DNA of 64,000 nt, taken from assembly GCA_965217095.1 (NCBI GenBank), contig OZ244235.1:3829319-3893318 (forward strand). The letters are read 5' to 3'. A model generated the notes under the pieces. It was given only the letters and a program-made list of their open reading frames with translations. It was not told where the DNA came from and made no database searches. The stretch is from Candidatus Latescibacterota bacterium. Lineage in GTDB: Bacteria > Latescibacterota > UBA2968 > UBA8231. Below are positions 46,262 through 62,976 of this stretch, piece by piece. The position numbers and the translations under genes are program-made. Every line of letters begins with the position of its first letter. Position 1 is the first letter of the stretch.

Positions 46262-46389
46262 TATCCCTTCCTCTACAGCGAAAACTCCCCGTTTCGGTAG
46301 CCCTTGAAATAGCCCGGATACCGGCGGAAATCAGGGAAAACTTGGGTTTAGAACGATAAACGGGGAGTCGTGCGTGGTCAACCGGAAAT

Positions 46390-46437
46390 ACACAGTATCT
46401 CAAGCTGCAGGCAGCTTCAGCACACAATATCTTGTGT
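46390..46437. promoter_or_regulatory. tandem NrdR boxes
   Basis: ACACAATATCTTGTGT (46422-46437) and weaker ACACAGTATCTCAAGC (46390-46405), 32 bp apart, just downstream of TTGACA-17-TATTTT (46450-46478). Confidence 0.85.
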
Positions 46438-46587
46438 TGAAGCTCTCCAAAAATATCGGCCTGAGACGACCTTGTCAAGCGGTTTTTTTGGAAGCCTTGT
46501 TTTAGCTGTTTCCACGCTCGAAGAGGCTAGAGATCGTGGTTGAAGACGGAGGACGGCGGGACGGTAGACTCCGGTTGAACATGGTGC

Positions 46588-47844: not shown

Positions 47845-48251
47845 TTGTCCTCGCGTCCGGTGGCAAAATTGACGCGCAGCGCCTCTACCTTGCGAAGCTC
47901 CTGCAGCACGTCTGAAATCAAACCGAATTCCGCGGCTCCGTCTCCCTTTATGGAGACCACAACCCGCGGATTTACCGTGAGTTTTTCGTGTATGCGCCGA
48001 CCCACCTGATCGAGCCCGATATTCTGATCATCGATGTTGATGACGCCGGTCGGTCCCACCCAGATGTTGGTCACGTCGCGCCGGCTCTCGAGCTTCTCGA
48101 CCTTTTCCGCTGTGGGCAGTTCGACCGGAATACCGCGAAAACGAACGAAGACGGTCGAAACCATAAAGAAGACCAGCAACAGGAAAGATATGTCCGCCAT
48201 CGATGCCGTGGGGATAGCGTTGGCAACTCGTGCCTTGCGTCGGAACCTCAT
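47841..48251 (-). CDS. exbD: ExbD/TolR
   Basis: IPTASMADISFLLLVFFMV. Confidence 0.92.
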   Translation of the reverse strand: MRFRRKARVANAIPTASMADISFLLLVFFMVSTVFVRFRGIPVELPTAEKVEKLESRRDVTNIWVGPTGVINIDDQNIGLDQVGRRIHEKLTVNPRVVVSIKGDGAAEFGLISDVLQELRKVEALRVNFATGREDK

Positions 48252-48254
48252 TGC

Positions 48255-48668
48255 TTACTCTTCCGGATTGGCTATGGAGATGCGGGTGGCCCCGGCCAGC
48301 TTCAGCTCGTCGAGGACGTCGACGAACATACGATAGCTGGCGCCCCGTTCAGCTTTGAGGGAAATGATCAGCTTCTCGTTCTCGCTCAGGCGGCGCTCGA
48401 TATCGGCCTTGAGGGCGCTAAACTCGATCGTGTTCAGGTTCTCGTTCTCGTAGTAGGCGATCTGGTCTCGGGCGTTGATCCAGACATTGCAGATGTTCTT
48501 CTTCCGCACCTCCTTGGTCTCGGCGACCGGAGGTAACTGCAACGACAGCCCTTTGTCCTGGTTCATGGTGGTCGTCACCAGAAAGAAAGCGATAAGCAGG
48601 AAGGCGATGTCCGCCATCGACGCTGTTGGAATTTCCGGTCCGACCCGCCGAACCCGTGGTCGCAGCAT
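48255..48668 (-). CDS. exbD: ExbD/TolR
   Basis: IPTASMADIAFLLIAFFLV. Confidence 0.92.
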   Translation of the reverse strand: MLRPRVRRVGPEIPTASMADIAFLLIAFFLVTTTMNQDKGLSLQLPPVAETKEVRKKNICNVWINARDQIAYYENENLNTIEFSALKADIERRLSENEKLIISLKAERGASYRMFVDVLDELKLAGATRISIANPEE

Positions 48669-48677
48669 GGTTGCGCC

Positions 48678-49301
48678 TCAGCCGCTGCTCTTCGAGCCGG
48701 CGATATCCGCGAGAATATCTACCAGGGCGGCGGTGTGCTCCTGCATGTCCGAGATGATTCGGTCGATGCGCGAGGCGAACAGGTTGTGGAAGAACTGAAT
48801 GATGATGCCAACGATGAGACCTGAAGCGGTGGTAATCAGCGCTTCGGAGATACCTCCTGCCACTTCGGCCGGAACCACATCGCCGCGCTGCTTGATCGCC
48901 TGAAACGCGTTGATCATTCCACTGACTGTACCCAGAAAACCAACCATGGGGGCGAGGTTGGCGACGGTGGACAACCACACCATGCCCCGCTCGAGGAACC
49001 CCATCTCCACGGCCCCCGAGTTTTCGATGGCCTTTTCCACGTGATCTATGCCGCGCTCCAGCCGCATCAAGCCCGCATGAATCACCGAAGCCACGGGTCC
49101 ACGGGTTTCCGAGCAGAGCTTGGCGGCGCTGTCGGGGCCCTCGGAACGCAACGCGTTTTCGAGCTTGCCGAAGAAATCTTCCGCGTCAATGGCGGCGCGA
49201 GAGAGGGTTGTCCACCGCTCTATGGTCACGGCGACACCAAAAATCAACAGAATGAGTAGCGGCCACATAGCCCAGCCGCCGTCTTGAAAAAGCTGAATCA
49301 T
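48678..49301 (-). CDS. exbB: ExbB/TolQ/MotA proton channel
   Basis: APMVGFLGTVSGMI, GISEALITTA.GL. Confidence 0.93.
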   Translation of the reverse strand: MIQLFQDGGWAMWPLLILLIFGVAVTIERWTTLSRAAIDAEDFFGKLENALRSEGPDSAAKLCSETRGPVASVIHAGLMRLERGIDHVEKAIENSGAVEMGFLERGMVWLSTVANLAPMVGFLGTVSGMINAFQAIKQRGDVVPAEVAGGISEALITTASGLIVGIIIQFFHNLFASRIDRIISDMQEHTAALVDILADIAGSKSSG

Positions 49302-49330: not shown

Positions 49331-50461
49331 CTATTTCGATTCGGTATTCTCTTCGGCCTCGCCACCACCGAAGAACGCGCGCTTGAGTTTCTCCTCCTCG
49401 GTTTCGGGCGGACGTAGATTCCAGATTCGCTGCTGGGCGACCTGTTCCCATGACGGGTCTTTCTTGGCGATCTCGAACGCTGCTATCGCTTCATCCTCCG
49501 CTCCTTCCAGGGCGAGCAGGTCACCATTCAACAGTTGCAGCCGGGAGTGTTTCGGATCGATGCCTAGCCCACCGTTCAACAAACGGCGCACCGCGACCCG
49601 GTCCCCACGCGTGAGGCGCATCTCCGCCAATAGCGCCACGCTGTCCAGGTCCTTCGGGTTGGCCTGGACCATGCCCTCGAGACCGCGTTGCCGCAGATCG
49701 TGTCTACCTGCCGTTTTCGCCATGGTGGCAATGCGGTTGTAGTAGGCGTAGCCGCTCACCGTATCCACCTGCGCCAGGCGCAGCAGCGTTTCGGCGGCCG
49801 CGTCCATGTCCCCCATCCGCTCCTGCAGCCGCGCCATCGCATCCAGCGATTCTCGCCGATCGGCCGCTGCGACGCCGGACGTATCCGCAAGCAGCTCTTG
49901 TCGCCATTTCAGCGCCAGGGCCGCCTGACCCGACCCTTCGTAGAGCACGGAGATAATCTCTGCCAGTTCGGAATCACCGGGCAAGCCGACGGCGAGCTGG
50001 GTGTAATGTGCGAGTGCCCGCTCGGTGCGGTTCCGGCGGCGGTAGAGGTCGGCAAGCAGACGCCGGTTGGCGTTATCTGCCGGCCTCATAACGAGAACGC
50101 GTTCGAGGCACGACGCCGCCGCGTCGGCCTCGCCTTGTTCACTCAGGACCCGGAACAAAACCAGGTTTGCATTGACGTGGGTAGAATCGAGCCTCAACGC
50201 TTCGGCGAGGGACGCGCGTGCCGCAATCATATCGCGACTCTCGTAGAAGACCCGCCCCAGCCGGTAGTGGGCTCGCTGATCGTCGGGCTTGAACTCGAGA
50301 AATCGCCGGTAATAGTCGATGGCGGCGGGATAATCCTTTCGATCGCCGGCGGTCTTTGCCAGGAAACGGTATTTCCGAATGGAATCGGCGAGCGTTTCCT
50401 CTGCCGCTTCTGCCCTCCAAACAAAGACGCATGTAACCGCGATAGCAGCGGCATTCAACAT
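49331..50461 (-). CDS. secreted TPR-repeat protein
   Basis: Signal-like N-terminus, multiple TPR helices; own TTGACA-18-TATATT near 50540-50568; start uncertain. Confidence 0.8.
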   Translation of the reverse strand: MLNAAAIAVTCVFVWRAEAAEETLADSIRKYRFLAKTAGDRKDYPAAIDYYRRFLEFKPDDQRAHYRLGRVFYESRDMIAARASLAEALRLDSTHVNANLVLFRVLSEQGEADAAASCLERVLVMRPADNANRRLLADLYRRRNRTERALAHYTQLAVGLPGDSELAEIISVLYEGSGQAALALKWRQELLADTSGVAAADRRESLDAMARLQERMGDMDAAAETLLRLAQVDTVSGYAYYNRIATMAKTAGRHDLRQRGLEGMVQANPKDLDSVALLAEMRLTRGDRVAVRRLLNGGLGIDPKHSRLQLLNGDLLALEGAEDEAIAAFEIAKKDPSWEQVAQQRIWNLRPPETEEEKLKRAFFGGGEAEENTESK

Positions 50462-50586
50462 GAGTCTTAAGAAAGTTTTTTGGGTGCGGAAACCGAGGTT
50501 TCTGGGCTGGGCAGGCATCGGCGAGTGCATTGGCCAAGAATATAGAACGGCGGAAAATCGGGTGTCAACGCAACGGCCTCTGTCTG

Positions 50587-50673
50587 TCACCACCAATCGT
50601 AGCCTCCGCCGGTTTCCCCGCGCAACGACAGCAGACCCCATAGAATCCGCGAGCCGAGCTCCCCAAAAATCAA
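50587..50673 (-). pseudogene. displaced 3' end of the DUF6785/6784-like gene
   Basis: Removing the IS and one TSD restores ...FMG-LIFGELGSRILWGLLSLRGETGGGYDWW*. Confidence 0.85.
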
Positions 50674-50693
50674 CGCAATCAGTGTTTTAGGGC

Positions 50694-50721
50694 TTGACAT
50701 TCGATTATTTATTGGTATAAT
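50694..50721 (+). promoter_or_regulatory. consensus sigma70 promoter at left IS end
   Basis: TTGACA-16-TATAAT; the -35 lies inside the TIR. Confidence 0.75.
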
Positions 50722-50871
50722 GAATTGACAGAGATTGACCTCCGCCAGCTGTCAGTAGGTTCTAGCATCATCTCATAAGCCCGACCGGGACATTACCCGG
50801 TCGGGCTCCATTCTTGCCATTTTGCGGCTCGAACCGCGAAACGGCTTAACATAGCAAGGAGATCACTCGCT

Positions 50872-51042
50872 ATGTCAAATCTTCCATTTCAATATAGCCG
50901 TATCCGGTCCGCTAGAACATCCCTTGCCAAGTTTTTTTTCAAGGTTTCCCTGGCGATAGTTCCCGAGGGGCATTTTCTCCTCTGGGCCGATCAGCTCCAG
51001 GATGAAACGTGGTTGAGGATCAAAAAACGCCCTGGCTTTTGA
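50872..51042 (+). CDS. 56-aa small ORF (IS passenger)
   Basis: AAGGAG SD; MSNLPFQYSRIRSARTSLAKFFFKVSLAIVPEGHFLLWADQLQDETWLRIKKRPGF. Confidence 0.45.
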   Translation: MSNLPFQYSRIRSARTSLAKFFFKVSLAIVPEGHFLLWADQLQDETWLRIKKRPGF

Positions 51043-51072
51043 CTGTCCCTACTGGGAAACCAGGCAGAGATC

Positions 51073-51378
51073 ATGATTATCCAATTGAATCATCCCCAAA
51101 CGACCGTGCAGAAGACCGCGAAGGTAGGCTTTTCATGGACTTCACTCTTCTTCGGTTTCCTCGTGCCCTTGGTGCGTGGAGACATGAAATGGATGGCAAT
51201 CCAACTCGTCGTAGTGACTCTCACTTTCGGGTTGGCCTACTTCGTTGTCCCTTTCGTCTACAATAAAATCTACATCCGGGAATTGCTGGAAAAGGGCTAT
51301 ACCCCCATTTCGGAAGAGGACCGGGACATTCTCGTCGCAAAGAATTTCCTTGTGGCCTCCGCGTTCGATGACGCCTAG
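51073..51378 (+). CDS. HrgC/DUF2628-like small membrane protein (IS passenger)
   Basis: KVGFSWT.LFFG..VPL.RGD...YNK.YI..LLEKGY. Confidence 0.75.
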   Translation: MIIQLNHPQTTVQKTAKVGFSWTSLFFGFLVPLVRGDMKWMAIQLVVVTLTFGLAYFVVPFVYNKIYIRELLEKGYTPISEEDRDILVAKNFLVASAFDDA

Positions 51379-51406
51379 CTGCGGATGTTTTTCCTACCAC
51401 CCCGCT

Positions 51407-51729
51407 TTATCCACACTCATCAAGAGCGGCCTGGGCTGATACGAGGTTGTCTTTTGCAGCTTGATACTCTTGCTTGAGTACGTTGAGGTCTTCAAAGGAG
51501 GGGTAACTGATTGAGTTCAAATCGGAAAAACCAGGATCGGATTTTGATGAATTAGGACTCTTCAAATGCAAGGAAGGAGCTTCATTGGGAGTAAGCATTT
51601 TTACGACTTGCAACAGGGACTTTGACATTTCCACAGACACTTCATGCGTATTATGGCAATTTCTTCTTTCGCTTCCCGTGCCTCCCTAAAGGCACGGCCT
51701 ACAATGGCGTCTTTCTCTTCTCGAGTCAT
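51407..51729 (-). pseudogene. helical passenger protein downstream of transposase, frameshifted near 51640
   Basis: AGGAG-ATG MTREEKDAIVGRAF...IRMK shifts to SVEMSKSLLQ...AALDECG*. Confidence 0.5.
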
Positions 51730-51767
51730 TTCGTTGTCTCCTGTCCCAAAAAGTTCCGTATTATTAC

Positions 51768-52649
51768 CTATGCAAAGCACCCGCTAATAAAAGAACCGAA
51801 GGCATTGTCGTCTTTCCGGTGGTTGTACTTGAAACAAGCCTCGGCCACGTAGAGCGGCGTGTAGTGTTTGGTGTAGTGGTGATGCGATCCATACCAGGCG
51901 CGCTTGAGCAGGGACCAGACGCCTTCTATCGTGTTGGTGTGAATCTCGCCATCGACATAGTGCTGAGAATGCTGAATCACGCAGTGATCCATGATCCTTC
52001 GCACCACGTTGTAGGCCCCGTATTCGTCCGTGACCAGCGTCGCGGCGTCAGGATCGATGGCGCGCTTGATAAAGGCGAGTACGCCCTTGCCGGAGAGATC
52101 GTCGGCGACTTCGGCCACAACCTTCCCTGAACGCTCCACAGCGCCGATAACAGCGGTCTTGCGCGTTCCTCGTCCTCTGGCGTTGGGCTTGTCGTCATCG
52201 CGCTTGTTGCGCTTCCTGGGGCGTCCGCCAACGTAGGTCTCGTCGGCTTCAATGAGGCCGCTTAACATGATTCTTCCCTGCTTGGTAGCCATTTCAGCCC
52301 GAATGCGCTGCTGCATGTACCAGGCGGCGCGCTGATTCAAATTCAAGTCACGACCAAGCTGGCAACTGGACAGGCTTTTCTTGGCGTTCACGATCAGGGC
52401 GATGGCGCAGAACCACTTCTGCAAGGGCAGGTGCGTTCCCTGAAACATCGTCTTGGACAAGACATTGAAGCTGGCCTTGCAAGCGTGACAGTTCCAGCGC
52501 CCGATTCTATTACCTTCCTTCTTGCGGGCGCACTCCCCGACCGTACCACACAAGGGGCAAAAGGGTTCATCACCGAAGCGAACCAGCTCCAAATGGGCGA
52601 TGCAGGCATCCTGCGTCGGAAACCTCTCTGTCACGGTTATCAAGTTCAT
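51768..52649 (-). CDS. IS1595 family DDE transposase
   Basis: Zn ribbon CPLC/CHAC, EADETYVGG, VTDE, HTNTIEGVWS. Confidence 0.95.
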   Translation of the reverse strand: MNLITVTERFPTQDACIAHLELVRFGDEPFCPLCGTVGECARKKEGNRIGRWNCHACKASFNVLSKTMFQGTHLPLQKWFCAIALIVNAKKSLSSCQLGRDLNLNQRAAWYMQQRIRAEMATKQGRIMLSGLIEADETYVGGRPRKRNKRDDDKPNARGRGTRKTAVIGAVERSGKVVAEVADDLSGKGVLAFIKRAIDPDAATLVTDEYGAYNVVRRIMDHCVIQHSQHYVDGEIHTNTIEGVWSLLKRAWYGSHHHYTKHYTPLYVAEACFKYNHRKDDNAFGSFISGCFA

Positions 52650-52733
52650 TCTCCGCTCCCTTATTGGTTGTTTTTCTTATACTTAAGATAACCAATAAGG
52701 GACTGAATGTCAAGCCCTAAAACACTGATTGCC

Positions 52734-54559
52734 AAAATCAAACCCATGAAGAACGGTCGTACCCGCTGGTAGGTGCCGGCGCCGCCGTAACGAACGACGA
52801 TCATCTTGACACTCCAGCCCACCAGGGCAGAACCCCACAACAAGGTGCCGAGACCGGTTCCATATACGAATCCGGCCGGGTGGAACGGAAACCGCACGAA
52901 AACGAGACGCAGGAAAGAAAGAACAGCCACCACTGCCCCTCCGAAACCGATGGCCGCCAATCGGTCCCAATCGGTGCCGGCCGCACGGGTGCCGACCTCG
53001 GCGTAGAGATAATGGTAGTAGCGGCCCAGGCGCGCGACCGAACGCCCGCCCCCTTGTTGGTCCAAGGTAAAAAGTCCGTGTTCGTACACGACGCTCAATA
53101 GCGACCACATTCCTGCCACCAACCCCAAAACGACGCCAAGACCGAGAACGGTGACGACCCCCTGGCGTCCGGTTTTCAACACCGACGCCATCTTGAACCC
53201 CTCGAACTGCAGCATGGCGATGGCCCCGATTCCGGTGTAATTGAGAGCGGTCAGGAAAGCCAGCGCAACATATTCCGAGCGGCTGAACACTCCCGGTCCG
53301 GAGCCGGCGAAAAAGAAGAAGAGGTTCCCGGTCACGAAATAGATGGCGGTAACCGGCAGGCCGGTGTCAAGACGGAGACGCATCATACCGACCGTCGTCA
53401 GCAGCAGCAGCGAGAAATAGAGCGCACTCAACCAGGCTGGCAGGCCGGCGGCGACACCCCAACAGACCATCAGCGCAAACCCGCCGAGCAGGAGCCAGGC
53501 GCCTTTCCCCTCGCGCGCTGCCGCTGCACAGGCGTGGCGGGCGCGCCAGAGATAGATGACCGCGAGGGTCAGCAGCGCCCCTCGAGCTTGCGCCTGCAGA
53601 TGGGGAAAGAAATTCGGCCACTCGCGCCACTGGGCGCCCAGACCGACGAAGGAGCCGTGGTCGTCGGCGCGCCCGATGAGCTCGGCATACAAGAGCTGCA
53701 CGCGGCTGCCGAGGAAAAAGAACCAGGTGCTGAAGGAGACCTCCACCGACAGCAGATAGCTCAAGCCGACCAACAGCGGCGAGAAATAGAAGACGAAGCG
53801 GGATTCGAACGGAGCCATCGCCTTCCACGGATCGTCGATCAGAACGGAACGCAGATCGAAGTAATGTGCGATCTCACCTGGGACGAGGAAGAAATGGTTG
53901 ATACCGTTGACTCCGAAGAGAATCACCGGCACCGAAACCCCGAGCCAGAATGCCCTGCCGCGGAGGAGTACGCCGCCGCGTTCGATCAGTTCCAGAGGGA
54001 TCTCGGTCAGGGGAAAGCGCAGGTGTTCCTCCTCGATCCAGCGTCGATGCAGGAGCATCACCAGACCCAGAAAAGCCGCGAAGAGACCGGCAACCAGGAC
54101 CGACCAGGCGAGAAGAGGAGCGATCCAGCTGTGCCAGGGTACGACGGCCGCCCCCTCGAAGAAACCATCGACGGCGAGCGAATCGGACGGGTCGGGCGTC
54201 ATCCAGCTCGGGATATGCTTCAAGAAGGGGTGGAATCGCTGGCTCTCGTCGGCGTAGGAATACGGTCCGGTCACCAATCCCGCCAGCAGGTATTGGGCCC
54301 AACCGGTCGACGCCAGAGGCAGGGCGACGGCGAGCAACAGATAGAGGGCAAGAAGCTCACGGCGGTCGAAGCTTAACCACCGCCCCAGGATCGCCGACGC
54401 CAAAAGAACCAGGGACATGAGGAGAAGCGGGAGGGGCGGCAACGGACCCGTCGCTAAGGAAGGTCCTCCGTAGACAAGCTCGACCCGCTGCAGCAGCCAG
54501 GAGCCGCCAACGGTGGCGAAAAGGGCGAGGACCAGCACCCGCATGCTGAGGTATCGCAT
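52734..54559 (-). pseudogene. DUF6785/DUF6784-like polytopic membrane protein, interrupted by IS
   Basis: W..PLLAW, RWIEEEHLRFPL, FPFHPAG, VRYGG..Y...PFFMGL; about 30 C-terminal aa displaced. Confidence 0.75.
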
Positions 54560-54571
54560 TGACTCACCGCA

Positions 54572-56539
54572 TCAAAAAGGGAACTGGGCCACCGACCTGG
54601 TTATGAGAACGATCGCAACGGAAGCCATTCCGGTTATTCCGTTGCCGCAGGCGAAACCGGCCAAGAGTACAGGGGCGTACTGGCGCCATTTGATGTCGCC
54701 AAAGCGCCGGGCGAAATAATAGCGTCCCAGGCAAGCCCCCAGCATCTCGGGAATCAGCAGATGCGGCAGACCTTGCAGTCCGCGAACGAAACCGTAGACC
54801 AAAGAGACCGGCAACCCCCAACCCGCCAGCACCCACAAGCCGGCAAGGGTCCCACCAAATCCTCCCAGCACCCAGGGCAGTTTCACCACCTCGACGAATT
54901 CCAGGTTGCCACCGGCGGTAAAGGAAAACCACATGAACTGTCGCAACGCGAGCAAATGCCAGTACTTCTGCGCGTATGGAAAGGCTATGGACGGTATGGG
55001 TCCCATATCCCAAATCAGCGACCAGAACAATAAGCCACACCCCAGCGCCAGTGGCAGAATGAGCAGTTCTGCTTTGGCGATACTGGTGAATCTAGTTCCG
55101 GTGAGCTCGACCTCGCGGAACAGCTGCGCCCGGCGACCATGGTCGTCGTACGGAATGGGTGCGAACCAGATGTCGACCCCGCGATAGCCGCTCAATAGAA
55201 AGGCCCCTTCGCGAACCAAGGGAATGCCCACGGTTTGTCCGGTGAGCCCCGACATTCGAGCGTTGGCATAGGAGAGCAGGGGCGTCATGACAAAGGCGAA
55301 CCCCAACAGAAAGACGAGGGGGAAGTGGTCGTCTTGCAATAGCCACAGACACATGGCTACGTAGCACGCAGCGGACCCGACATAGAGCAGAACCGCTATC
55401 CATATGGGAAAATCGCCGCGCCCTGGCGGGGTTTTCAACGCCTGGTGCCCACCGCCCCTGTACTCGTTCAACGCCCGAACGGCGTAGATGATACCAGTAA
55501 TACCCACCGCCCCGCCCGTGCCGATGTAGACACTCATCCAGACATCCAGATCGTTGCTAAAGTGGGTGAGCACCGTGTCCATCCCGGGACTCCACCGCGG
55601 CAGATGACCCAGATGAAAGAGCAATGGATTCGCCAGCATCTGCACCAGGGAGGCCGCGAAACCACCCACGACTACCCAGAACGGCAACACGAATCCCACC
55701 AGGACCAGACCGAGATCGGTGGAGATGCCGATCGGCGTGGCCGGCAGTAGATGCTCCAGCTCCCGGGTCAGATCTATCCACGGAATGGGAAGAAGAACGA
55801 TCGGCCGGCTGGCGATCAGACTGGTCAGCGCCGGCAACGCGATGAACAAGGCGCCAAACAGCAGGCCGATCCCCATGCCCACGGAGAAAACATGCCAGCG
55901 CCAGCTTTCGCGACCGGAACCGCTCTCCGCCAGGGCCGTGGCACCTTGTGCGGCGACCGGAGCTAGGGGAAAAGGCAACTTCTCCACGTCGGAGGTGAGG
56001 CGGAACAGCAGATAACCGAGCCCAAACCATTCGGCTCGCGCCAGCACCTGCCCCAGTACCAATAGCGCGATCGGCACCACCCAATCGCCATGGACAAACG
56101 TTCGCGCCGCCAGCGCCGCGGAATCAGCTCCGGGCACTACCCAGCTCGGGATCTGCGCGGCGATCCCGAGGGCCTGACCTACCTGGGACTGCACCAGATA
56201 CTGATACCATATCAACCCACCCAGGGGTCCGCCGGCGAGCATGACACCACCGAGGACATGAGTCAGTCCGCCGGCGATGTAGTAGATCAAGTAGATCTCT
56301 TGTCGACGCAACGGTGTGAACGCGCGTCGCGCCATCTCAGCGAATAGGATGACCGTTACCCATTCCGCCGCCGCCCCCATGCTGGTACCGGCGATGAGCC
56401 CCATGTAAATGGCACCGGGCATCATCAGGAAGCCGATGAAAAGCCCGCCCAGGGCGGTGCGCCACGTCATGCCCTCCTCGAATTCTTGAGGAGGCTGCAT
56501 CAGCTCCCGGTAGTCCTCGAAATCCTCAGTACGCTTCAC
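54572..56539 (-). CDS. OPT-like peptide transporter membrane protein
   Basis: GTG start overlaps upstream stop; AEWVTVILF.E, DVEKLPFPLAPV, IPS..FPY. Confidence 0.75.
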   Translation of the reverse strand: MKRTEDFEDYRELMQPPQEFEEGMTWRTALGGLFIGFLMMPGAIYMGLIAGTSMGAAAEWVTVILFAEMARRAFTPLRRQEIYLIYYIAGGLTHVLGGVMLAGGPLGGLIWYQYLVQSQVGQALGIAAQIPSWVVPGADSAALAARTFVHGDWVVPIALLVLGQVLARAEWFGLGYLLFRLTSDVEKLPFPLAPVAAQGATALAESGSGRESWRWHVFSVGMGIGLLFGALFIALPALTSLIASRPIVLLPIPWIDLTRELEHLLPATPIGISTDLGLVLVGFVLPFWVVVGGFAASLVQMLANPLLFHLGHLPRWSPGMDTVLTHFSNDLDVWMSVYIGTGGAVGITGIIYAVRALNEYRGGGHQALKTPPGRGDFPIWIAVLLYVGSAACYVAMCLWLLQDDHFPLVFLLGFAFVMTPLLSYANARMSGLTGQTVGIPLVREGAFLLSGYRGVDIWFAPIPYDDHGRRAQLFREVELTGTRFTSIAKAELLILPLALGCGLLFWSLIWDMGPIPSIAFPYAQKYWHLLALRQFMWFSFTAGGNLEFVEVVKLPWVLGGFGGTLAGLWVLAGWGLPVSLVYGFVRGLQGLPHLLIPEMLGACLGRYYFARRFGDIKWRQYAPVLLAGFACGNGITGMASVAIVLITRSVAQFPF

Positions 56540-59500
56540 GCCGGCCGGTCCATCTGGAGATATTGGGATCGGGTGGCGGGCGTCAGAGATCGCCACACCA
56601 GAAACTGTTTTCGCAGCTGATTCAGCAGCAGCTTGTTCGACCGCAGCCAGGCTGAGCGATCGCCGGAGCACCGTACGCTGACCGCCTCCAGGGCGAAGAA
56701 TCGCGCGCCCACTTCGGCTATCGCATGCAGCTCGAACTCCTGAGACAGTCCCTGGTCGAAGGGGGCCAGCCACATGCGTGCCCGCAGGATCGGCACTGGA
56801 TGGCGACCGGATGCGGATACGGTGCCGGATTCCAGTTCGGTTTCTTCGACATAGAAGAGGGCACCGATCGATTGTTCCGTATGTCCTTCGAGAAACTCCG
56901 AGACAAATACAACGAGACCCGCCGCCTCGTTTCGCGAAAGCGCGAACGGCATGGGCACAGACAGGGTATCTCCGTCCGCTTGGGGCAAGCGCCATGAGCG
57001 CTCGATGCCCGGCACGCATATGCGCGCGGCTTCACGAGCGGGATACAGGGTCGACAGCAGCACCACCGCCGCCACAGCGGCGGTGGTTGCCACCGCAGAG
57101 AGCGAGGAGTAGTTCACGGTGAGGCCGGGAAACATGCCGAAGAGCAAACCAAGCTTCGCTACGGACTGGCCCAGGAGATAACCCAGGGCGCTGCTGATTA
57201 CGGCGTAAACAACGGCCTCGGCGAGGAAGAGTCCCGCCACGTGCATCGGCGCGAGTCCAACGGCGTTCAAGGTGCCGATATCGCCGATCCGTTCGTGGAC
57301 CGAGCCCAGCATCGTGTTGAAGACGATCAGTGCCGCGACCAGAATTGGGACCCAGATACCCGGCCGACCGCTAAACGCCTGCACACCGGCGGTGTTTATG
57401 AGGTACCTAAAACCCCCGTTGATGGCGAACAGATTCAAGCTGATCTCTTGCGCCAGATCATGCGCCGCGCGGTTCCCGTTGCGCGTCGCAACAGCGACGG
57501 ATGTTAGGCGCGATTTCTCCCCCCAACGCCTCACCACGTCGAACGGTAGAATCAGCACCCGCGCGCTTTCCAGGTGCGCAAACGCCGAGTGAATCTCCGA
57601 CACGCCGCTGCCGATCGTCTTTTCGACCGGCTGGTGGGTTTCCTGGTCCAGGGGGGTGAGCGGTCCCCCGCCGATATCCCGCAGCTGATCAAAACTCGGG
57701 GGGTCGAAGAATCCGATCACTCTGAATTCCGCACCCAGAAAGCGAATCCATTCCTTGCCGACCGACCTGATGGTCAAACCCAGCTTGTCAGCCATCTCGG
57801 TGCTGAGGAGGCACACATCCACCTCTTCTTCGTAGAACCAGCGGCCGCCGACCAAGGTTTGGTCGACTGCTGTGATCAGCGGTTCATTTGGCATCAACCC
57901 CAGCGTCCCATTCACGCGCGCCGAGCGGACACCGGATTCCGCCGTTGCCGGCGCCACGTACCAGGCACGCGCCGCGGTGGACGCCGCACCGAAGCGCGAC
58001 CGCAACAGCTCTAAGACCCGGTGTTCCAGCGTCTCCCATCCCGGGTTCCGGACCAGCAGGGCGTCTCCATGCTCGGCCGGTCCAATCCGCGTTTCGTTGT
58101 AACGCACCGCCTCGCGGATGGAGGTGAACGAAAGCATTGAAAAGGTCAACAGTACGAGGGTGAGGGAGGTCAGCGCGGTGCGCATCGGGCGGCGTCGCAG
58201 CTGACCTATTCCCATGAGGAGTGCGCGGAATAGCAGGCCCGTGCGGTCGGTGTCGACACGGTGAGCCGCCCGGCGGTTAACGGAAGAGCGCAGTTGCGCG
58301 TTCAATCGAGAAATCCCCATGATCGCCACCACCAGGCTCAAGGCGAGGATGACGAAGCCCAGAAGAATCACCAGCGGATAGATGCTCAACTCAAAAGCCG
58401 GATGTACGTACCGAAGTAGAAAGAAGACGATCAGGAAGATCCCGAGGGACCCGAGCACCTGGCCGCGAAGATGGGCACTTTCGAGAACGAGACGCTCTCC
58501 GAAATAGGCAACCGGCAGCAGCAGGAACAGGAAAAACAGGACCCCGTGGACGACGTCCAACGTCAGACTCTGTACGCCGTTGTATGTCCGCGAGGCATAG
58601 CTTCGGGCTCTGTTGGTCAATGCGAAATAGTTTCGTAGTGCCTCGACGACAGCGCCCCTCTGGCCTGCGTTAGAAGCGATTCGGTGGTGGCGTGGGTACT
58701 CTCCAGAAGCGGACTGTTGATGCCATGCCTGCGCAGATTCCTCAGCCGTGATGCGTTTAGCTCGTAGGTGTCCGTCGCGATCTGCAAACCGGTTTGATTG
58801 AGACGGGGATACCGCGCCGCTGCGAAACCGGAACCGGTCGGGCGCGTCCCGTTGCCGTTGAGCAGAAGTAGCGCTCGACCTATTCGGAACCGCCCGCCGG
58901 TCATGGTAAACTTGGCGGCGACACCTGGTGGCAAAAACGCAACGGCCACTTGCTCCACGCCACTGCCGGTGCTGTTGAAATATCCTCGCGTTGCGATTTC
59001 GTCCGGCGTTGCCGTGGTCGAGAAGCCGAAGTTCACCGGTCGTGCATCGGAATCGGCGTCCAAGATTTCCAGATGTTCCAGCGTTTTCATGCTGAGCGGA
59101 TCGAACGTGTCGAACAGGGTGATCGGTTGACACCAGAACCCGACCAAGGGGGAGAGCTCCTTCTCCAGCTGGTCCATGCGGATCTCGTTGGGGTACTGCT
59201 GGACTCCGAACGGGCCGCGATCCAGTGCGAAGTTCAGCTCCCCCGTATGGTCGTCGGTGCGGAACATCTCCACCTGAATCGGTTTGAGGTACAGGGTGCG
59301 GGCTTCGACCCCTTCGAACGAGAAGCGGCCTTCCCCATCGCTCAGCGCCAGCGGATCCATGCGCACGCCCATAATGACATGATGTCGAGTGCGAACCCGC
59401 ACGAGTGCGCCTTCTATTGGGAGGTTCGGGCTATATGCTTGGACCCCCCAAGTAAGCACTCGACCTTCTACGGTGCCGAAGGAATCCTTGCGCGGGTCGA

Positions 59501-60985
59501 TCTGCGTTCCAGCGGTGGGATCGCTCAACAGCTCGATCAGGAGTGAGCCGAGGAAATTCGTCTGCTCTTCGAGCTGCTCCACATCGACCAGGTGCGGTAG
59601 ATCCAACGGCGAGTCGAAAGCATTCCTAATGTCTCCGGCAGTGACAAAGGTCAAGCCCAAAAAGCCGGCGAGGTTTGCCACCGCACCCTGCACCGGAATC
59701 TGTTCTGGTACGGCTCCAAGCAGCACCCGTTCACGGAGCGGTTTTAGCTCGCCGCCCAGGATCAACCGGCCCTGGCGCCGTTCGCGTTCGTAATGGTGGG
59801 CGAAGCGCTCGATGGCTTCGTAGATGGGCGGCCGGATCTTGCGCACCCTGTAGGGTGATCCGGCTTGTATCAGACCGATCCTACTGCCATGGCTGCTGAG
59901 ATCGAGGCCCACGTAATAAGCCAGCTCGAGGTCGTCGAACCCATCGCCGAGGGCGGACAATCCCCCGCGACGCACGGCGCCGACCAGATCGCGCATGCCC
60001 GCAAGGCTTTGAAAATGGCCTGGCGTGGCGGCGAGAATGACGGTGCGCGGCAGACGCTCGTCTTGCAGTAGCCTGGCGATCTCGAGCCATGCGGCCACCC
60101 CGGAAGCCTGTTCCGCGCCCGGAGAAATAGCCGGAATGGGGGAGATGGCGTCGTAATAGCAGCCCACCATCACCGCCTCGTGGCGCAGTTGCGGATCGGT
60201 GCCTGGAAGTACGGCGATCACCGTCGTCGCCGGGGTTTCCTGCCACGTCATCCTTCCCTGCAGCCGAGCCCGAGCAGCACCCTGTTTGGCCAGGTCTCGC
60301 AGTCGGATGGCCTCTTTTCCCGCCGCGTAGAATCGGGGCAGATCCGCGGGCGTGGTCAGAAACTTCAACGCCCCTTCCTTGCGGTGAGTGCGGGATGGCT
60401 GCAGGAAGATGACCGCCCGGGCGCCGAGATCGAAGACCGAGACCCAATTGGATCCACAGTTGTATTCGAGCACGAGAATCGCGTCGTCGATGGGCAAGCC
60501 GTCCAGCTCTCCCTGGCGGGCGTGACCGCCGTAGAGCAAGCGAGCTTCGATGCCGGTCGGCGGCAGGGTAGAGGTCCGGGCGATATTTGGCCAGACGTGG
60601 TAGAGCTGGATGCGGTTTGCCGTCCACTGACGATCCGCCGTGGAATCGTGTTTGCCGGAAGGAGATGCGAGCTCGAGATAAGCCCCTTGATCCACAGGCA
60701 CCGGGACCGTAAAGCTGCGGCGACGGATGTCGATTATGCCGGCGGCGGCCAACTGGTTTTCCAAGTATTCGGCAGCCCACACAGCGCCGGGATATCCGGT
60801 GGTTCTAGAGCCGTGGGTGGAGAGGGACCGGATGTGATCGCCAAGCGACCCACCCCATACCGGCGGCACGAAAGCGGCGGCCACTAACCCTGCAATAGCC
60901 GCCAGAAGGAACCCCAACTCTTGACAGTTTGGCCTGCCAAAGGCGAAGTGCCAAAGGCGAAGTTTTTATTCGACTTACAGCTCAT
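56536..60985 (-). pseudogene. PA/M28-peptidase-like + FtsX/MacB-type permease fusion (about 1480 aa), frameshifted
   Basis: M28-like N-part (SR.TGYPG, YYDA..PGAEQASG); FtsX parts (RRRPMRTALT, NTMLGSVHER..IG); 1-nt deletion at 58631-58633 and 14-bp duplication at 60935-60962. Confidence 0.8.
60935..60962. repeat. perfect 14-bp tandem duplication
   Basis: TGCCAAAGGCGAAG x2. Confidence 0.95.
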
Positions 60986-61034: not shown

Positions 61035-61622
61035 ATGAAGCTTCTCAGTTCTGGAGAAAACCAACGCATTCAGCGCATCGTCGACGGCGACGAACTGGCT
61101 TATCAGTCGCTTATCCGCGACTACTACTCGCTGGCCTACAACCTGGCGTGCAAGATGCTCAACAATCGTCAGGATGCCGAGGAAGTGGTCCAGGATGCGT
61201 TTGTCAAGATTCGCGAGGCCCTGGACAGCTTCCGGGGCGACGCGTCGCTGAAAACGTGGATCCTGCGCATTGTCATGCGGCTGAGCCTGAACCGCCGCCG
61301 CGATCGCTCCCGCAGCTCGTGGAACCGCATGGGTCTTCACAAAATGGCAGCGGTGGGGGAGGAGGAAGCAGCCGATTCGCCGATGGTGCAGCAGAGCCCC
61401 GAGGCGGAGTTGATTTCGCGGGAGACAGGAGGGCGCGTTCTGGCATTGATCGATGAGCTACCCGAGCCGTTGCGTCAGGCGCTTGTTCTAAACAGCATTG
61501 ACGAGTTGTCGTACGAAGAGATCGGCCGCATTTTGCGAATCCCGCTGGGAACTGTCAGCTCGCGCATCTACGCGGGCCGCAAAAAACTGGCTAAGAAACT
61601 GCAGGAACATGATCTACTCTAA
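61035..61622 (+). CDS. ECF sigma factor
   Basis: DAEEVVQDAF, FRGDASLKTW, SYEEI...GTVSSRI. Confidence 0.93.
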   Translation: MKLLSSGENQRIQRIVDGDELAYQSLIRDYYSLAYNLACKMLNNRQDAEEVVQDAFVKIREALDSFRGDASLKTWILRIVMRLSLNRRRDRSRSSWNRMGLHKMAAVGEEEAADSPMVQQSPEAELISRETGGRVLALIDELPEPLRQALVLNSIDELSYEEIGRILRIPLGTVSSRIYAGRKKLAKKLQEHDLL

Positions 61623-61715: not shown

Positions 61716-62072
61716 ATGAAACTGCCGTGGCGAAGAGATGCGGATGGGCACAGAATCTCCGCTTATTTGGACGGCGAGCTAGACCAGACGGAAGAGCTCG
61801 AACTTGCGGATCGGTTGGTATTCGACCAGAACCTGCGAGAGAGAATGGCTGACGTCAGACAGGTGGACGCGATGGCGATCGCGGCCCTTTCCGTCGATCC
61901 AGTACCTGACCCAGCAGCGACAGCCGAGAGACTGGTAGCGGAGATCGACACGTCGCCGGTGACACCTTCGGCGTCGGCCCGCAACCTCAAACCTGCCCTT
62001 TACGCCTCCGTCGGCATTTTGCTCACGGTAGGAATCACCTTCGTCGGCTTGAGGCGACGGGGATTGGTTTGA
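61716..62072 (+). CDS. putative anti-sigma factor
   Basis: ISAYLDGEL N-terminus, C-terminal TM helix, follows ECF gene. Confidence 0.75.
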   Translation: MKLPWRRDADGHRISAYLDGELDQTEELELADRLVFDQNLRERMADVRQVDAMAIAALSVDPVPDPAATAERLVAEIDTSPVTPSASARNLKPALYASVGILLTVGITFVGLRRRGLV

Positions 62073-62085
62073 TCGGACGATTGCC

Positions 62086-62976
62086 ATGAGCTGGTTCGAA
62101 CGTATGAAGAAGGGATTCCAGACGCGGATCCGACGCGATTTGTCGGAGAGCATCTGGAGCAAATGTCCCGACTGTGGTCACGCCACCTACAACTACGCTC
62201 TGGAGCGCGGTTTTTGGATCTGTCCTGATTGCGGCCACCATATGCACATCGGGCACCAGGAGTACACCGAGATCCTGGTGGACGACGGCAGCTTCGCAGA
62301 ACTCGATGCGGAGATAACCGCGGCGGATCCCCTCAAATTCAAAGACGACAAGCGTTACGTCGACAAGCTAAAGGCGAGCAGAAAAGCAAGCGAACTGAAC
62401 GAGGCAATCTATACGGGGACCGCGCGGATCGGAGGGCACCCGGTCGCCCTGGGCGTAATGGACACCCGTTTTATCATGGGCAGCTTGGGGGGAGCAACCG
62501 GTGAAAAGATCGCCCGCTTGATCGACCGCGCCATCGCCGACCGTCGGACCCTGATTCTGATCTGCCAATCCGGCGGCGCACGAATGCAGGAAAGCGCGTA
62601 TTCCCTGATGCAGATGGCGAAGGTGAGCGCCAAACTCAATCAGCTTTCGCAAGCGGGGCTTCTCTACATCGCCCTGCTGACCGATCCCACCTATGGAGGA
62701 GTCAGCGCCAGCTTCGGCATGCTCGGCGACCTGATCATCGCCGAGCCTCGTGCGCGTGTCGGTTTCGCCGGCCAATCGGTGATCAAACAGTTCCTGGCCA
62801 CCGACGAACTGCCCAACGGATTCCAGATGGCGGAAACCGTACTGGAACACGGTTTCGTCGACTGCATTGTGTCTCGCGAGGAGATGGCCGCCACCTTGAC
62901 GCGGTTGATCGCGATGCTTGCCCCCGCTGCAGACCTCCGCGCCCAAAAGGATTTTGAGACGGCGCTGGCGGTGTAG
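62086..62976 (+). CDS. accD: acetyl-CoA carboxylase carboxyltransferase beta
   Basis: C4 Zn finger, SGGARMQE, PTYGGVSAS, GFAG. Confidence 0.95.
   Translation: MSWFERMKKGFQTRIRRDLSESIWSKCPDCGHATYNYALERGFWICPDCGHHMHIGHQEYTEILVDDGSFAELDAEITAADPLKFKDDKRYVDKLKASRKASELNEAIYTGTARIGGHPVALGVMDTRFIMGSLGGATGEKIARLIDRAIADRRTLILICQSGGARMQESAYSLMQMAKVSAKLNQLSQAGLLYIALLTDPTYGGVSASFGMLGDLIIAEPRARVGFAGQSVIKQFLATDELPNGFQMAETVLEHGFVDCIVSREEMAATLTRLIAMLAPAADLRAQKDFETALAV

Follow-up and report, generated by a model that had tools for sequence, protein, structure and literature searches.

Several proteins of membrane complexes, namely Nicalin, the transferrin receptor and a GPI-transamidase subunit, possess ectodomains that adopt the fold of M28 peptidases but are non-catalytic. 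Among the ABC systems, those of type VII that have been described all act on the periplasmic side of the membrane or outward, and none of them imports; in the MacB-type units, the loop between TM2 and TM3 is the coupling loop, and ATP is not spent on moving the substrate across the membrane (PMC5985334). Barley YS1, a member of the OPT family, is a proton-coupled importer and a homodimer (PMC9691689). When examining a 64,000-nucleotide stretch of a Latescibacterota genome (hereinafter, the window), we observed three co-oriented genes, transcribed in the order P1, P2, P3, that bring these elements together (Table 1). A literature search yielded no paper on a machine of the P1-P2 type. Such a machine would be widespread and unstudied, and the trio would be one of its paralogous copies, the machine itself being conserved, located in the envelope and so far undescribed; we put forward this view as plausible but tentative.

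Table 1. Features of the locus (positions in the window)
Feature	Position	Strand	Description and basis
TonB	47194..47844	-	Pfam TonB_C; synteny
Second ExbD	47841..48251	-	Pfam ExbD; synteny
ExbD	48255..48668	-	Pfam ExbD; synteny
ExbB	48678..49301	-	Pfam MotA_ExbB; synteny
TPR protein	49331..50641	-	Pfam TPR families; kept after P3 in relatives
IS1595-family element	50674-52733	-	2,060 bp; transposase 51768..52649; 18-bp terminal inverted repeats
IS1595 passenger part	51073..51378	+	~1 kb; position and strand are those of its 101-aa membrane ORF
P3	52661..54559	-	632 aa as present; DUF6785+DUF6784, OPT fold; native codons 1-608 only (down to 52734)
P2	54572..56500	-	642 aa; divergent OPT-superfamily polytopic protein; constant neighbour of P1
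P1, C-terminal part	56536..58629	-	697 codons and stop; three TM helices, MacB/FtsX unit (TM1, ~250-aa periplasmic domain, TM2-TM4), ~157-aa cytoplasmic domain of unknown fold; Pfam FtsX, MacB profile match, hydropathy
Frameshift site	58630..58631	-	one base missing relative to close relative L009 and contigs of two public runs
P1, N-terminal part	58632..60917	-	762 native codons; signal-anchor helix (residues 2-20), PA+M28-fold head (~15-470), beta-rich domains (~480-700), two long helices (709-757); ORF, Pfam M28, AF2, Foldseek, VIA, hydropathy
ECF sigma factor	61035..61622	+	divergent; Pfam Sigma70_r2/r4; synteny
Candidate anti-sigma factor	61716..62072	+	118 aa, one C-terminal TM helix; weak NCBIfam match
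AccD	62086..62976		next gene after the candidate anti-sigma factor

P1 is a protein of approximately 1,460 aa in which a PA/M28-fold head is joined to a MacB/FtsX-type membrane part. Pfam Peptidase_M28 (PF04389) scores 29.4 bits, above its cut-off of 21.3, with an alignment restricted to positions 2-70 of the 193 in the profile; the AF2 model of the N-terminal part (pLDDT 89.6) contains the M28 alpha/beta fold with an inserted PA domain (Foldseek match to 2ek8, E 5.2e-23), and in VIA the head model superposes on 1rtq along 261 residues (Z 28.2, rmsd 2.5) and on 2ek8 along 384 (Z 27.6). The original prediction that this peptidase domain is inactive is borne out by profile alignments with 2ek8, 6hc6 and 1amp, in which the His ligand is replaced with Tyr, the bridging Asp with Glu, and the Glu-Glu pair with His-Phe; the motif strings GCYYD, EQASG and GHF on which the prediction was based are all present in P1. 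Of the M28 pattern (Aeromonas aminopeptidase numbering), the head lacks the catalytic Glu151 as well as His97, Asp117 and Glu152, which bind zinc. Beyond the end of the HMM alignments, GLDLSS (D339) may, as we presume from inspection by eye, retain ligand Asp179, and the His of the SDH type (His256) seems to be absent. The ligand replacements are conserved throughout the P1 family, in which Y255, D256 and H301 are invariant; judged from the sequence, the head is a non-catalytic pseudo-peptidase with an invariant pocket of its own.

The membrane part of P1 matches FtsX (PF02687) with 50.1 bits against a cut-off of 25.5, the P1 family profile finds MacB (5lil) with E 3.4e-13, and MacB_PCD (PF12704; cut-off 27 bits) scores 33.4 bits in a paralogue of P1. 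Hydropathy yields a 1+3+4 arrangement of TM helices with a loop of approximately 250 aa after TM1, that is, the type VII permease layout in which the FtsX domain comprises TM1, a periplasmic domain and TM2-TM4. The TM2-TM3 loop of the P1 family harbors the motif NTMlGsVYER..EIg; none of the 37 sequences, those of the window's clade included, deviates at E446 or R447, so by this sequence evidence the loop that docks the nucleotide-binding domain (NBD) is retained in P1.

The claim that both polytopic proteins encoded next to P1 belong to the OPT superfamily is supported as well, although the profile searches, which recovered Peptidase_M28 and FtsX in P1 and DUF6785 (304.3 bits, E 1.8e-90) and DUF6784 (69.7 bits, E 2.6e-19) in P3, produced no direct match to OPT (PF03169) in either P2 or P3. 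P2 matches nothing in Pfam and NCBIfam, even at E 10, the DUF6785 and DUF6784 models included. The assignment of P2 comes from its relatives (941 cluster representatives), in that 9 of 18 match PF03169, 8 of them along the full length and above the 25.8-bit cut-off, and from its homology to the P3 (DUF6785/6784) families (hhalign 98.3%, E 1.5e-14, 562 columns). For P3, on which alone the fold was examined, the AF2 model (pLDDT 82.8) has the OPT/YS1 fold: the only transporter that it matches is barley YS1 (HvYS1, 7wsr; Foldseek E 2.4e-9, TM 0.70-0.73), on which VIA superposes it with Z 24.2 and rmsd 3.7 over 546 residues, the next best Z being 7.1. The expected strings DVEKLPFPL and EEEHLRFPL are found in P2 and P3, respectively. 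Given that YS1 is a homodimer, a P2/P3 pair is conceivable.

The three genes are closely packed, as predicted: the P1 stop codon (56536-56538) is separated from the P2 ATG (56500) by 35 nt, and the P2 stop codon (54572-54574) from the P3 ATG (54559) by 12 nt. The P1-P2-P3 order is found again in related genomes, so this arrangement is not due to chance. Moreover, a P2-family or DUF6785 gene adjoins P1 in 78 of 79 P1 loci, and in the sole exception (1/79) the sequence ends 231 bp after P1. Downstream, the predicted genes for TPR, ExbB, two ExbD and TonB proteins follow on the same strand (Pfam); the exbB-exbD-exbD-tonB set is co-directional in 6 complete and 3 contig-cut loci of 15, and TPR-exbBD(-tonB) adjoins P1/P2 in two different paralogous contexts. 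Of the divergent ECF sigma/anti-sigma pair, the sigma factor is confirmed, and the anti-sigma factor is a candidate whose NCBIfam match (E 1.6e-4, 21.7 bits) lies below the cut-off of 100.

In this strain, the copy of the trio is probably crippled. The single gene of about 1480 aa that had been proposed for P1 is interrupted: a base missing at 58630/58631 divides it into two ORFs that overlap, 58617..60917 (766 aa) and 56536..59133. Behind 58630, contigs from public runs X5 (depth 6.3) and X7 (depth 2.5) have an additional base, and those from X1 and X2 are identical to the window; the 1-nt deletion is real. The C-terminus of P3 is lost to an element with the hallmarks of the IS1595 family, namely, a DDE transposase (PF12762, E 4.6e-38; NF033547, 178 bits against a cut-off of 75), terminal inverted repeats and target duplication (8 bp, AAAATCAA, at 50666-50673 and 52734-52741). 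This insertion removed the last 25 native codons of P3, the present last 24 being supplied by the end of the element, and separated the trio from TPR-exbBD-tonB; the corresponding site in L009 is empty, and a 99.9% copy of the transposase part is present elsewhere in the same genome. The interval of the original prediction (50587..60985) also contains this element.

No ABC ATPase is encoded with the trio, as had been noted: none of the 57 ATPase-like ORFs of the genome lies inside the window, and the closest is separated from the trio by 60 kb. Among the 79 loci, an orthologous LolD/MacB-type ATPase is encoded within 9 kb of P1 in 15 and a mini-FtsX protein in 10; the 79 loci also include 29 with a gene for a PqqD-like protein and 26 with one for a protein denoted x336, both of which lack TM helices by hydropathy. 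One such locus (L074) has the order P1, P2, PqqD-like, mini-FtsX, ATPase, the genes lying 0-62 nt apart; the operon P1-P2-x336-PqqD-miniFtsX-ATPase occurs in three genomes from basal families of the same phylum (G003, G005, G016), and P1-P2 operons in other phyla encode two soluble proteins (one PqqD-like), mini-FtsX (220 aa here and in the basal families) and the LolD/MacB-type ATPase. The mini-FtsX carries a motif matching the TM2-TM3 loop of P1. In the window's genome, single-copy orthologues of mini-FtsX (E 2.3e-65, next best FtsX 1.8e-8) and, directly after it, of the ATPase (E 4.2e-119, next best 7.7e-81) are found at contig positions 4716229-4717760, approximately 830 kb from the trio. 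Co-occurrence with an ABC ATPase, which the original prediction had named as evidence against itself, is therefore seen in part, that is, in these 15 loci and through the trans-encoded pair.

Searches of the same 121 genomes of the phylum (52 of them of high quality) detected P1 in 107 and P2 in 107, with an identical set of 14 misses, 13 of which fall in family f10; mini-FtsX was detected in 101, in none of the 13 genomes of f10, and its other 7 misses are genomes that are 60-89% complete. Each of the searches was positive in 44 of the 52 high-quality genomes. This agreement is statistically weak because it comes mostly from one event, the joint loss of P1, P2 and mini-FtsX in f10, and from related genomes. 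There are 1-9 P1 matches per genome and always one mini-FtsX. In the 9 cases in which the mini-FtsX/ATPase pair is separated, an S41 protease gene adjoins it in 5 and a GT2 gene in 5, and it may have another job. A complex prediction for the C-terminal half of P1 with mini-FtsX gave weak support, with a score of 0.36 (runs 0.36, 0.32 and 0.36) against 0.00 for the best of three controls, although this pass may reflect mere likeness because solved LolCE and MacB dimers exist; at least 73% of the contacts agree between runs, and the partner pLDDT is at least 64. By benchmark counts that are rough only, because we used our own alignments, the mark is reached by 116 out of 157 complexes of solved structure and by 2 out of 215 mismatches; those that reach it with 0.60 or less include both mismatches and only 18 of the 157.

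What has been observed comprises the folds, the loss of the M28 ligands, the linkage of the genes, the orthologues encoded in trans and the agreement in presence and absence. Given the OPT-superfamily neighbour in 78 of 79 loci, the P1 unit is, most likely, a machine of ABC type VII that has an OPT-fold protein as its partner; the full proposal, a MacB/LolCDE-like unit coupled to an OPT-fold membrane protein and leaning toward uptake, is our preferred reading, one that may well be right but that we do not press. P1 would be the large permease half, a MacB-type four-helix unit with its periplasmic domain and the PA/M28-fold head on top, a 245-aa mini-FtsX without a periplasmic domain the small half and the LolD/MacB-type ATPase the motor, with the trans-encoded pair probably common to the P1 paralogues; P2, here together with P3, would provide the membrane pathway that MacB-type units lack. 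We infer that these proteins physically assemble. The head would bind a periplasmic peptide or glycopeptide, perhaps after TonB-dependent uptake through the outer membrane; ATP-driven movement, if the window's clade indeed uses ATP, would reach the periplasmic domains by way of the TM2-TM3 coupling loop, and the OPT-fold partner would then receive the ligand for import. As to substrate and direction, we favour the uptake of a peptide or glycopeptide; the catabolic setting of DUF6785 paralogues in the window's genome, which adjoin glycosidases, a sulfatase and sugar-acid enzymes, the importer function of YS1, and the adjacency of TPR-exbBD(-tonB) all lean this way. The original prediction, in which an inactive peptidase domain captures peptides for an OPT-like channel without an ATPase, is thus partly confirmed in its observations and partly supported in its interpretation.

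With no type VII ABC importer described, import by such a unit would be unprecedented, and the soluble PqqD-like protein and x336 of the ancestral operon fit export of a cytoplasmic peptide at least as well. The same ABC-plus-OPT machine might therefore work outward, with a PqqD-presented cytoplasmic peptide or another envelope building block leaving via the OPT-fold protein and the periplasmic domains and head of P1 taking over for release, processing or outer-membrane delivery. This direction would agree with all described type VII systems (PMC5985334), and it is further suggested by the NCBIfam names of the PqqD-like proteins (peptide chaperones), their operonic genes in 29 of 79 loci, the GT2 genes beside the mini-FtsX/ATPase pair in 5 of 9 cases in which it is separated (with an RmlD gene also close by in the window's genome), and the envelope proteins (SlpA-like barrel, PpiC, DUF4350, DUF4159) encoded next to P1 in one locus (L023). 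Nevertheless, we consider export rather unlikely: an unsystematic look at the loci examined revealed no membrane-fusion or TolC-like gene adjoining P1, the window-type operon lacks PqqD and x336, and the catabolic setting of the DUF6785 paralogues and the YS1 precedent (PMC9691689) point inward.

Two further readings dispense with ATP-driven transport. If, as originally concluded from the missing ATPase, the system were a secondary, ATP-independent one for transport or sensing, the FtsX part of P1 would be a mere membrane anchor and the OPT-fold proteins would run on the proton gradient, as YS1 does (PMC9691689), perhaps aided by ExbBD, whose genes are co-directional in the loci counted above. 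No locus of the window's own P1 clade (7 rows of the 37-row tree) has an ATPase or mini-FtsX within 9 kb, and this clade and its sister (6 rows) group together on long branches, away from the types with the full operon, so the energy source could have changed. However, the docking loop is invariant within this very clade, full operons exist in basal families of the phylum, and the trans-encoded, single-copy orthologues track P1 across the 121 genomes (101 positive), all of which speak against the conclusion and make it quite improbable. Still less probable, in our estimate a marginal case, is a BceAB-like sensory module, in which the P1/ATPase unit would signal periplasmic ligand load to the ECF sigma/anti-sigma pair via intramembrane contacts, with no nutrient transport. 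The candidate anti-sigma factor, with its one TM helix, has almost no periplasmic part and so would need a partner for sensing; the pair is divergent from P1 in L009, L011, L013 and L016-L019, and in L074, L078 and L079 the gene after the ATPase encodes a GGDEF protein. By contrast, the pair is absent beside P1 in L069, L070 and all other P1 contexts, and the constant partner of P1 is an OPT-fold gene, not a regulator.

Returning to the ABC-plus-OPT machine oriented toward uptake, we would venture, as a doubtful but not far-fetched generalization, a class of hybrid transporters in which a MacB-type mechanotransmission unit drives or gates an OPT-fold, elevator-type protein, the ligand-binding pseudo-peptidase head stands in for the binding protein of classical ABC importers, and several substrate-specific P1-OPT modules per cell share one mini-FtsX/ATPase motor. 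If so, a MacB-type unit that is itself unable to pass substrate through the membrane would power a separate OPT-fold pathway.

Comparison with the known systems delineates what is shared and what is distinct. The P1 family profile matches Nicalin (E 1.3e-7) and the transferrin receptor (E 1.5e-4), and in VIA the head model aligns with the transferrin receptor (Z 24.6) and the GPI-transamidase chain 7w72_A (Z 19.4); these proteins are, however, eukaryotic and unfused to a transporter, and the likeness seen is that of the shared M28 fold. As in MacB of MacAB-TolC, P1 contains a four-helix FtsX unit whose TM1 and TM2 flank a periplasmic domain and whose TM2 and TM3 are joined by the ER..EIG coupling loop (PMC5985334), but it lacks a fused NBD and possesses three additional TM helices, the N-terminal ectodomain of approximately 760 aa and the C-terminal cytoplasmic domain of approximately 157 aa; no MacA- or TolC-type gene was seen adjacent to it, the constant neighbour being the OPT-fold protein. 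LolCDE illustrates that the superfamily accommodates two unlike FtsX-type halves served by a LolD-type ATPase from a gene of its own (PMC5985334), and LolD is the best-scoring model for the trans-encoded ATPase (225.5 bits, under the cut-off of 307.75); here, though, the small half has no periplasmic domain, mini-FtsX and the ATPase fall below every Lol equivalog cut-off, and Lol could be represented by other FtsX/ATPase sets of the window's genome. YbbAP-TesA (PMC12646458) and FtsEX-EnvC likewise join a type VII ABC unit to a hydrolase-fold periplasmic module, which in P1 is fused and devoid of catalytic residues, with an OPT-fold protein in the unit. Finally, P2 and P3 resemble the OPT/YSL transporters (PF03169; barley YS1, PDB 7wsr) in that relatives of P2 reach the family cut-off and the P3 model superposes on YS1 along 546 residues despite 14% identity, but they differ from these in being genetically tied to an ABC-type permease.

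P1 (a pseudo-M28 head joined to a MacB/FtsX-type permease), P2 (a divergent OPT protein) and P3 (a DUF6785+DUF6784 protein) are encoded in one direction with the transposase, TPR and Exb/TonB genes that follow them, and every motif string quoted in the original prediction was found in the translated open reading frames. As that prediction had it, profile searches matched P1 to FtsX and, partially, to Peptidase_M28; P3 matched DUF6785 and DUF6784, Pfam yielded no match to P2 up to E 10, and NCBIfam none to the N-terminal part of P1, to P2 or to P3. The gene after the 118-aa frame, considered as a second anti-sigma gene, was rejected as such, being AccD. The nearest relatives of the window are MAGs labelled Candidatus Latescibacterota.

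Genes in and around the P1-P2-P3 cluster
Feature	Position	Strand	Size, match or placement
P1	58617..60917 (766 aa) and 56536..59133	-	two overlapping ORFs; M28 (partial) and FtsX (Pfam)
P2	54572..56500	-	ORF, 642 aa
P3	52661..54559	-	632 aa; DUF6785 and DUF6784 (Pfam)
IS1595 transposase	51768..52649	-	Pfam/NCBIfam
TPR protein	49331..50641	-	TPR domain match
ExbB, ExbD, ExbD, TonB	47194..49301	-	MotA_ExbB, ExbD (twice), TonB_C
NrdR and class II-type ribonucleotide reductase	43886..47037		after tonB
ECF sigma factor	61035..61622	divergent from P1	Pfam/NCBIfam
118-aa ORF	after ECF sigma factor	divergent from P1	
AccD	62086..62976		gene after 118-aa ORF

In the AF2 model of the N-terminal part of P1 (pLDDT 89.6, pTM 0.90), residues 15-470 have the fold of PA-containing M28 aminopeptidases (Foldseek match to 2ek8, E 5.2e-23; VIA superposed 261 residues on 1rtq, with Z 28.2 and rmsd 2.5, and 384 on 2ek8, with Z 27.6), the next-ranked structures being transferrin receptor, GCPII, glutaminyl cyclases and a GPI-transamidase chain; among PDB sequences, the same part retrieved nothing but the PA domain of ZNRF3, at E 0.49. 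In profile alignments with 2ek8, YwaD and the Aeromonas enzyme, the last two metal ligands lying outside the alignable part, the M28 ligands are replaced, namely, His by Tyr, the bridging Asp by Glu and the Glu-Glu pair by His-Phe. With an intact relative as the query, 460 of the 8,000 candidates scored reached E 0.001 or better; the 120 listed are mostly 1,400-1,500 aa long, all save P0152 contain FtsX, most contain M28 too, and their source names go no further than 'FtsX-like permease' or 'M28 family peptidase'. The replacements hold throughout the family, which possesses invariant residues of its own (Y255, D256, H301, D429, R431, D435 and D439, with D339 nearly invariant), and this argues that the head, probably inactive as originally predicted, is a conserved, apparently non-peptidase pocket and no decayed domain. 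The C-terminal part of P1 consists of three TM helices, then TM1, a loop of ~250 aa, TM2-TM4 and a soluble tail of ~157 aa; it matches MacB at E 3.4e-13 and has a conserved ER..EIG-type motif in the TM2-TM3 loop. An ESM Atlas search with the C-terminal cytoplasmic domain gave no usable match.

The only kind of significant PDB structure match for the P3 model (pLDDT 82.8, pTM 0.87) is to barley YS1, an OPT-family protein (Foldseek E 2.4e-9, TM 0.70-0.74; VIA Z 24.2 and rmsd 3.7 across 546 residues, against Z 7.1 for the runner-up), and the P3 sequence retrieved nothing from PDB sequences up to E 10. With a threshold of E 0.001, the P2 family counts 941 cluster representatives, and Pfam OPT matches were obtained in 9 of 18 tested relatives, eight of them above the cut-off and mostly full-length. 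The P2-family and DUF6785/6784 alignments match each other over 562 columns (98.3% probability, E 1.5e-14; an earlier, shallow hhalign comparison of P2 with P3, at 49.5% and E 1.7e-4, is superseded) and have the E-K-L-x-F-P motif in common. P2 and P3 are therefore OPT-superfamily proteins, and the initial guess of an OPT relationship was right. The single PDB-sequence match of the P2-family profile, galactocerebrosidase (E 0.23), is regarded as chance. YS1 is described as a homodimeric, proton-coupled importer of the elevator type (PMC9691689). Four long P2 relatives (P0001, P0005, P0019 and P0015; 860-1,080 aa) contain an inserted Reg_prop beta-propeller repeat or PDZ domain, and these insertions may be alternative extracytoplasmic heads.

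In the close relative L009 (DNA identity 86% across P1), P1 is a single frame of 1,491 codons, and compared with it the window is one base short near 58633. Contigs from two public sequencing runs of two studies (X1 and X2, possibly including the window's own source sample) are identical to the window across 58300-59000, and contigs from two further studies (X5, depth 6.3, and X7, depth 2.5) agree with it there apart from an extra base behind 58630 that restores the frame. The deletion is hence a genuine allele, and an intact one exists as well. A mere long-read assembly error was rejected as the explanation because the same deletion is found in X1 and X2. The broken frames of another Latescibacterota chromosome, L013 (3-6 each in P1, P2 and P3), look like long-read indel error, not biology.

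The homology with L009 also stops at 52734 and restarts at 50673, the intervening 2,060-bp IS1595-family element, which ends in 18-bp inverted repeats and is flanked by the duplicated 8 bp AAAATCAA, being located between the trio and the TPR-exbBD-tonB genes. In P3, 24 residues coded by the element stand in for the native last 25, and the P3 model is therefore non-native from about residue 609 onward. The passenger part of the element (window 50674-51702; ~1 kb, GC 0.49, which is low) is single-copy in the genome and contains a plus-strand frame (51073..51378) for a 101-aa product resembling a small membrane protein; the other genome copies comprise the transposase part only, one at 99.9% (contig 1433778-1434735) and five at about 90%.

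Among the 15 loci collected with P2, six (L009, L011, L013, L017, L018 and L019) have the sigma, anti-sigma and AccD genes and then, divergently, P1-P2-P3-TPR-ExbB-ExbD-ExbD-TonB, and three (L014, L016 and L020) fit this order of the window up to their contig ends; the other six have P1-P2 (L010, L022), a P3-like gene and then P2 (L012), P2 only (L015, L021) or ExbB-ExbD-ExbD ... P2 ... P1 (L023). Since the cluster is flanked by housekeeping genes, part of this conserved order may be plain chromosomal synteny. The second context of P1 and P2, in another Latescibacterota genome (L023:84-20759), runs from an SlpA-like barrel, a 1,088-aa TPR protein, ExbB, two ExbD and a 256-aa protein through a PpiC-type rotamase, P2, an FGE/SUMF1-like protein and P1 to DUF4350-like and DUF4159 genes.

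Of 597 stretches that a P1 alignment matched in species-representative genomes, 591 are relatives, a lower bound for the family; their records carry the labels Latescibacterota, Armatimonadota, Omnitrophota and Gemmatimonadota, among others. An OPT-superfamily gene adjoins P1 in 78 of the best 79 of these loci, the lone exception ending 231 bp past P1 (P2-family genes in 68, DUF6785 in 47, both in 37, DUF6785 only in 10). Genes for a PqqD-like protein and for x336, a soluble protein of ~330 aa, are present in 29 and 26 of the 79, respectively, and a mini-FtsX (~220 aa, without a periplasmic domain) in 10; x336 has no family match in Pfam or NCBIfam and matches only unnamed clusters in the ESM Atlas. 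An orthologous ABC ATPase is encoded within 9 kb of P1 in 15 of the 79. In L074, the genes for P1, P2, the PqqD-like protein, mini-FtsX and the ATPase are separated by 0-62 nt. Loci with the full operon carry the labels Armatimonadota, Nitrospirota or 'Hebobacteria', or are unclassified; as MAG labels, these may be wrong.

The window's own genome encodes orthologs of both putative motor proteins elsewhere, namely, mini-FtsX at contig 4716229-4716966 (matching the L074 protein at E 2.3e-65, against 1.8e-8 for the runner-up FtsX) and, directly after it, the ATPase at 4716999-4717760 (E 4.2e-119; runner-up 7.7e-81), which is of the LolD/MacB/FtsE kind and scores below every equivalog cut-off. Identification of the pair as FtsEX was rejected (FtsX_Gneg at 30.7 bits versus a cut-off of 255). 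When one set of 121 genomes of the phylum was searched, P2 and the C-terminal half of P1 were each found in 107, with the identical 14 misses, that is, all 13 genomes of family f10 and G031 (57% complete); mini-FtsX was found in 101, in none of the 13 f10 genomes but in G031, its seven misses outside f10 being genomes 60-89% complete. Each of the three queries was positive in 44 of the 52 high-quality genomes, with one to nine P1 matches per genome and always one mini-FtsX. With the genomes being kin and the absences falling largely in one family, this is a consistent pattern and no statistical proof.

Three genomes of families f7 and f9 (G003, G005 and G016) contain the full operon P1-P2-x336-PqqD-miniFtsX-ATPase, G010 contains PqqD-miniFtsX-ATPase, and in eight genomes of f1, f2, f3 and f6 the mini-FtsX/ATPase pair lies away from P1. 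In a FastTree of 37 P1 C-terminal halves, which has long branches and only a midpoint root, the window groups with Exb-linked loci in a clade of 7 rows, whose neighbour is a P1-DUF6785-P2 clade of 6 rows; the two are set apart from the full-operon types and from a paralogous type, DUF6785-P1'-P2'-x336-PqqD, that is also present in the window's genome. An intact P1 paralog is encoded there at contig 2014025-2018782. The simplest history would be an ancestral six-gene operon from which the P1-OPT modules multiplied in some Latescibacterota families, the motor genes perhaps staying single and relocating away from P1. Among nine genomes in which the pair is separated from P1, the gene immediately before it encodes a PDZ-containing S41 C-terminal processing protease in five (L128:7393-9201, L149, L153, L154 and L156), and a GT2 glycosyltransferase adjoins it in five.

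A complex prediction for the P1 C-terminal half and mini-FtsX, with alignments as the input, scored 0.36 (runs 0.36, 0.32 and 0.36; contact agreement at least 73%, partner pLDDT at least 64), rated 'weak support', with 0.00 as the best of three controls. The mark of this test is reached by 116 of the 157 solved complexes and by 2 of the 215 mismatches in its calibration, and those that reach it with scores of 0.60 or under are only 18 of the 157 and both mismatches, counts that hold only roughly here because our own alignments were used. Given that LolCE and MacB dimers have been solved, the pass may be explained by likeness to these.

The DUF6785/6784 family is hugely expanded in the window's 6.7-Mb genome (37 Pfam matches, 27 in frames of at least 600 aa). 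Most copies are solitary and lie beside carbohydrate-use genes (e.g. L024-L048), their neighbours including GH78 rhamnosidase, GH42-like and GH63-like enzymes, sulfatase, UxuA, enolase-superfamily dehydratases, GFO/IDH/MocA, PhyH and FG-GAP/ASPIC proteins and a TonB-dependent receptor; ABC ATPase motifs were found in 0 of 316 neighbouring frames. They appear to serve PUL-like loci of Latescibacterota as the principal inner-membrane carriers. A ~990-aa family, 'c2', has 14 copies near DUF6785 genes (e.g. L031:7394-10402 and L040:6081-9035) and may be an outer-membrane partner; its sole match, to the SlpA beta-barrel domain, is weak and falls below the threshold. Many IS copies lie near DUF6785 genes. 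Several DUF6785 copies are fragmented, one with an internal TGA, and a 395-aa fragment resembling the P1 head adjoins such genes (C1:5290342-5292388, 5670050-5674603, 5704273-5706233 and 2725043-2726230 for this group of fragments); gene decay and assembly indels are both possible causes.

The original prediction saw in the trio an ATPase-free system for secondary transport or sensing. The orthologous ATPase and mini-FtsX encoded in trans, the presence/absence pattern and the gene linkage speak against this. In our preferred reading, the trio would form a single module of a type VII ABC machine partnered by an OPT-fold protein, in which the parts assemble and the window's clade uses ATP through a probably shared motor. 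For annotation, this is a warning against equating 'no ATPase in the operon' with 'no ATPase'. With regard to direction, we lean toward uptake, perhaps of peptides or glycopeptides, because the P1 head has an aminopeptidase-like pocket, YS1, the one OPT protein considered here, is reported in PMC9691689 to be an importer, DUF6785 paralogs occur in catabolic clusters, and P1 and P2 adjoin exbBD-tonB in two separate contexts. Export by the same machine is a strong rival, which suits the cytoplasmic PqqD-like protein and all that is known of type VII systems.

In the literature covered, which excludes subscription journals, there was no mention of DUF6785 or DUF6784, no relevant link between FtsX, M28 and OPT and, for Latescibacteria, nothing relevant to such a system. 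The P1 system is common, judging by the numbers of P1 stretches and P2-family representatives, and, should the parts assemble, it would provide the first functional context for bacterial OPT-fold proteins and DUF6785/6784 and help explain peptide or glycan uptake or output by these uncultured degraders. Each part has a known fold, and what does not appear in the literature searched is their joint occurrence, in which a MacB-type unit and a dead M28 head go with an OPT-fold partner, a PqqD-like protein and a shared motor encoded in trans. Such an assembly, if it forms, would extend the range of functions known for type VII ABC systems.
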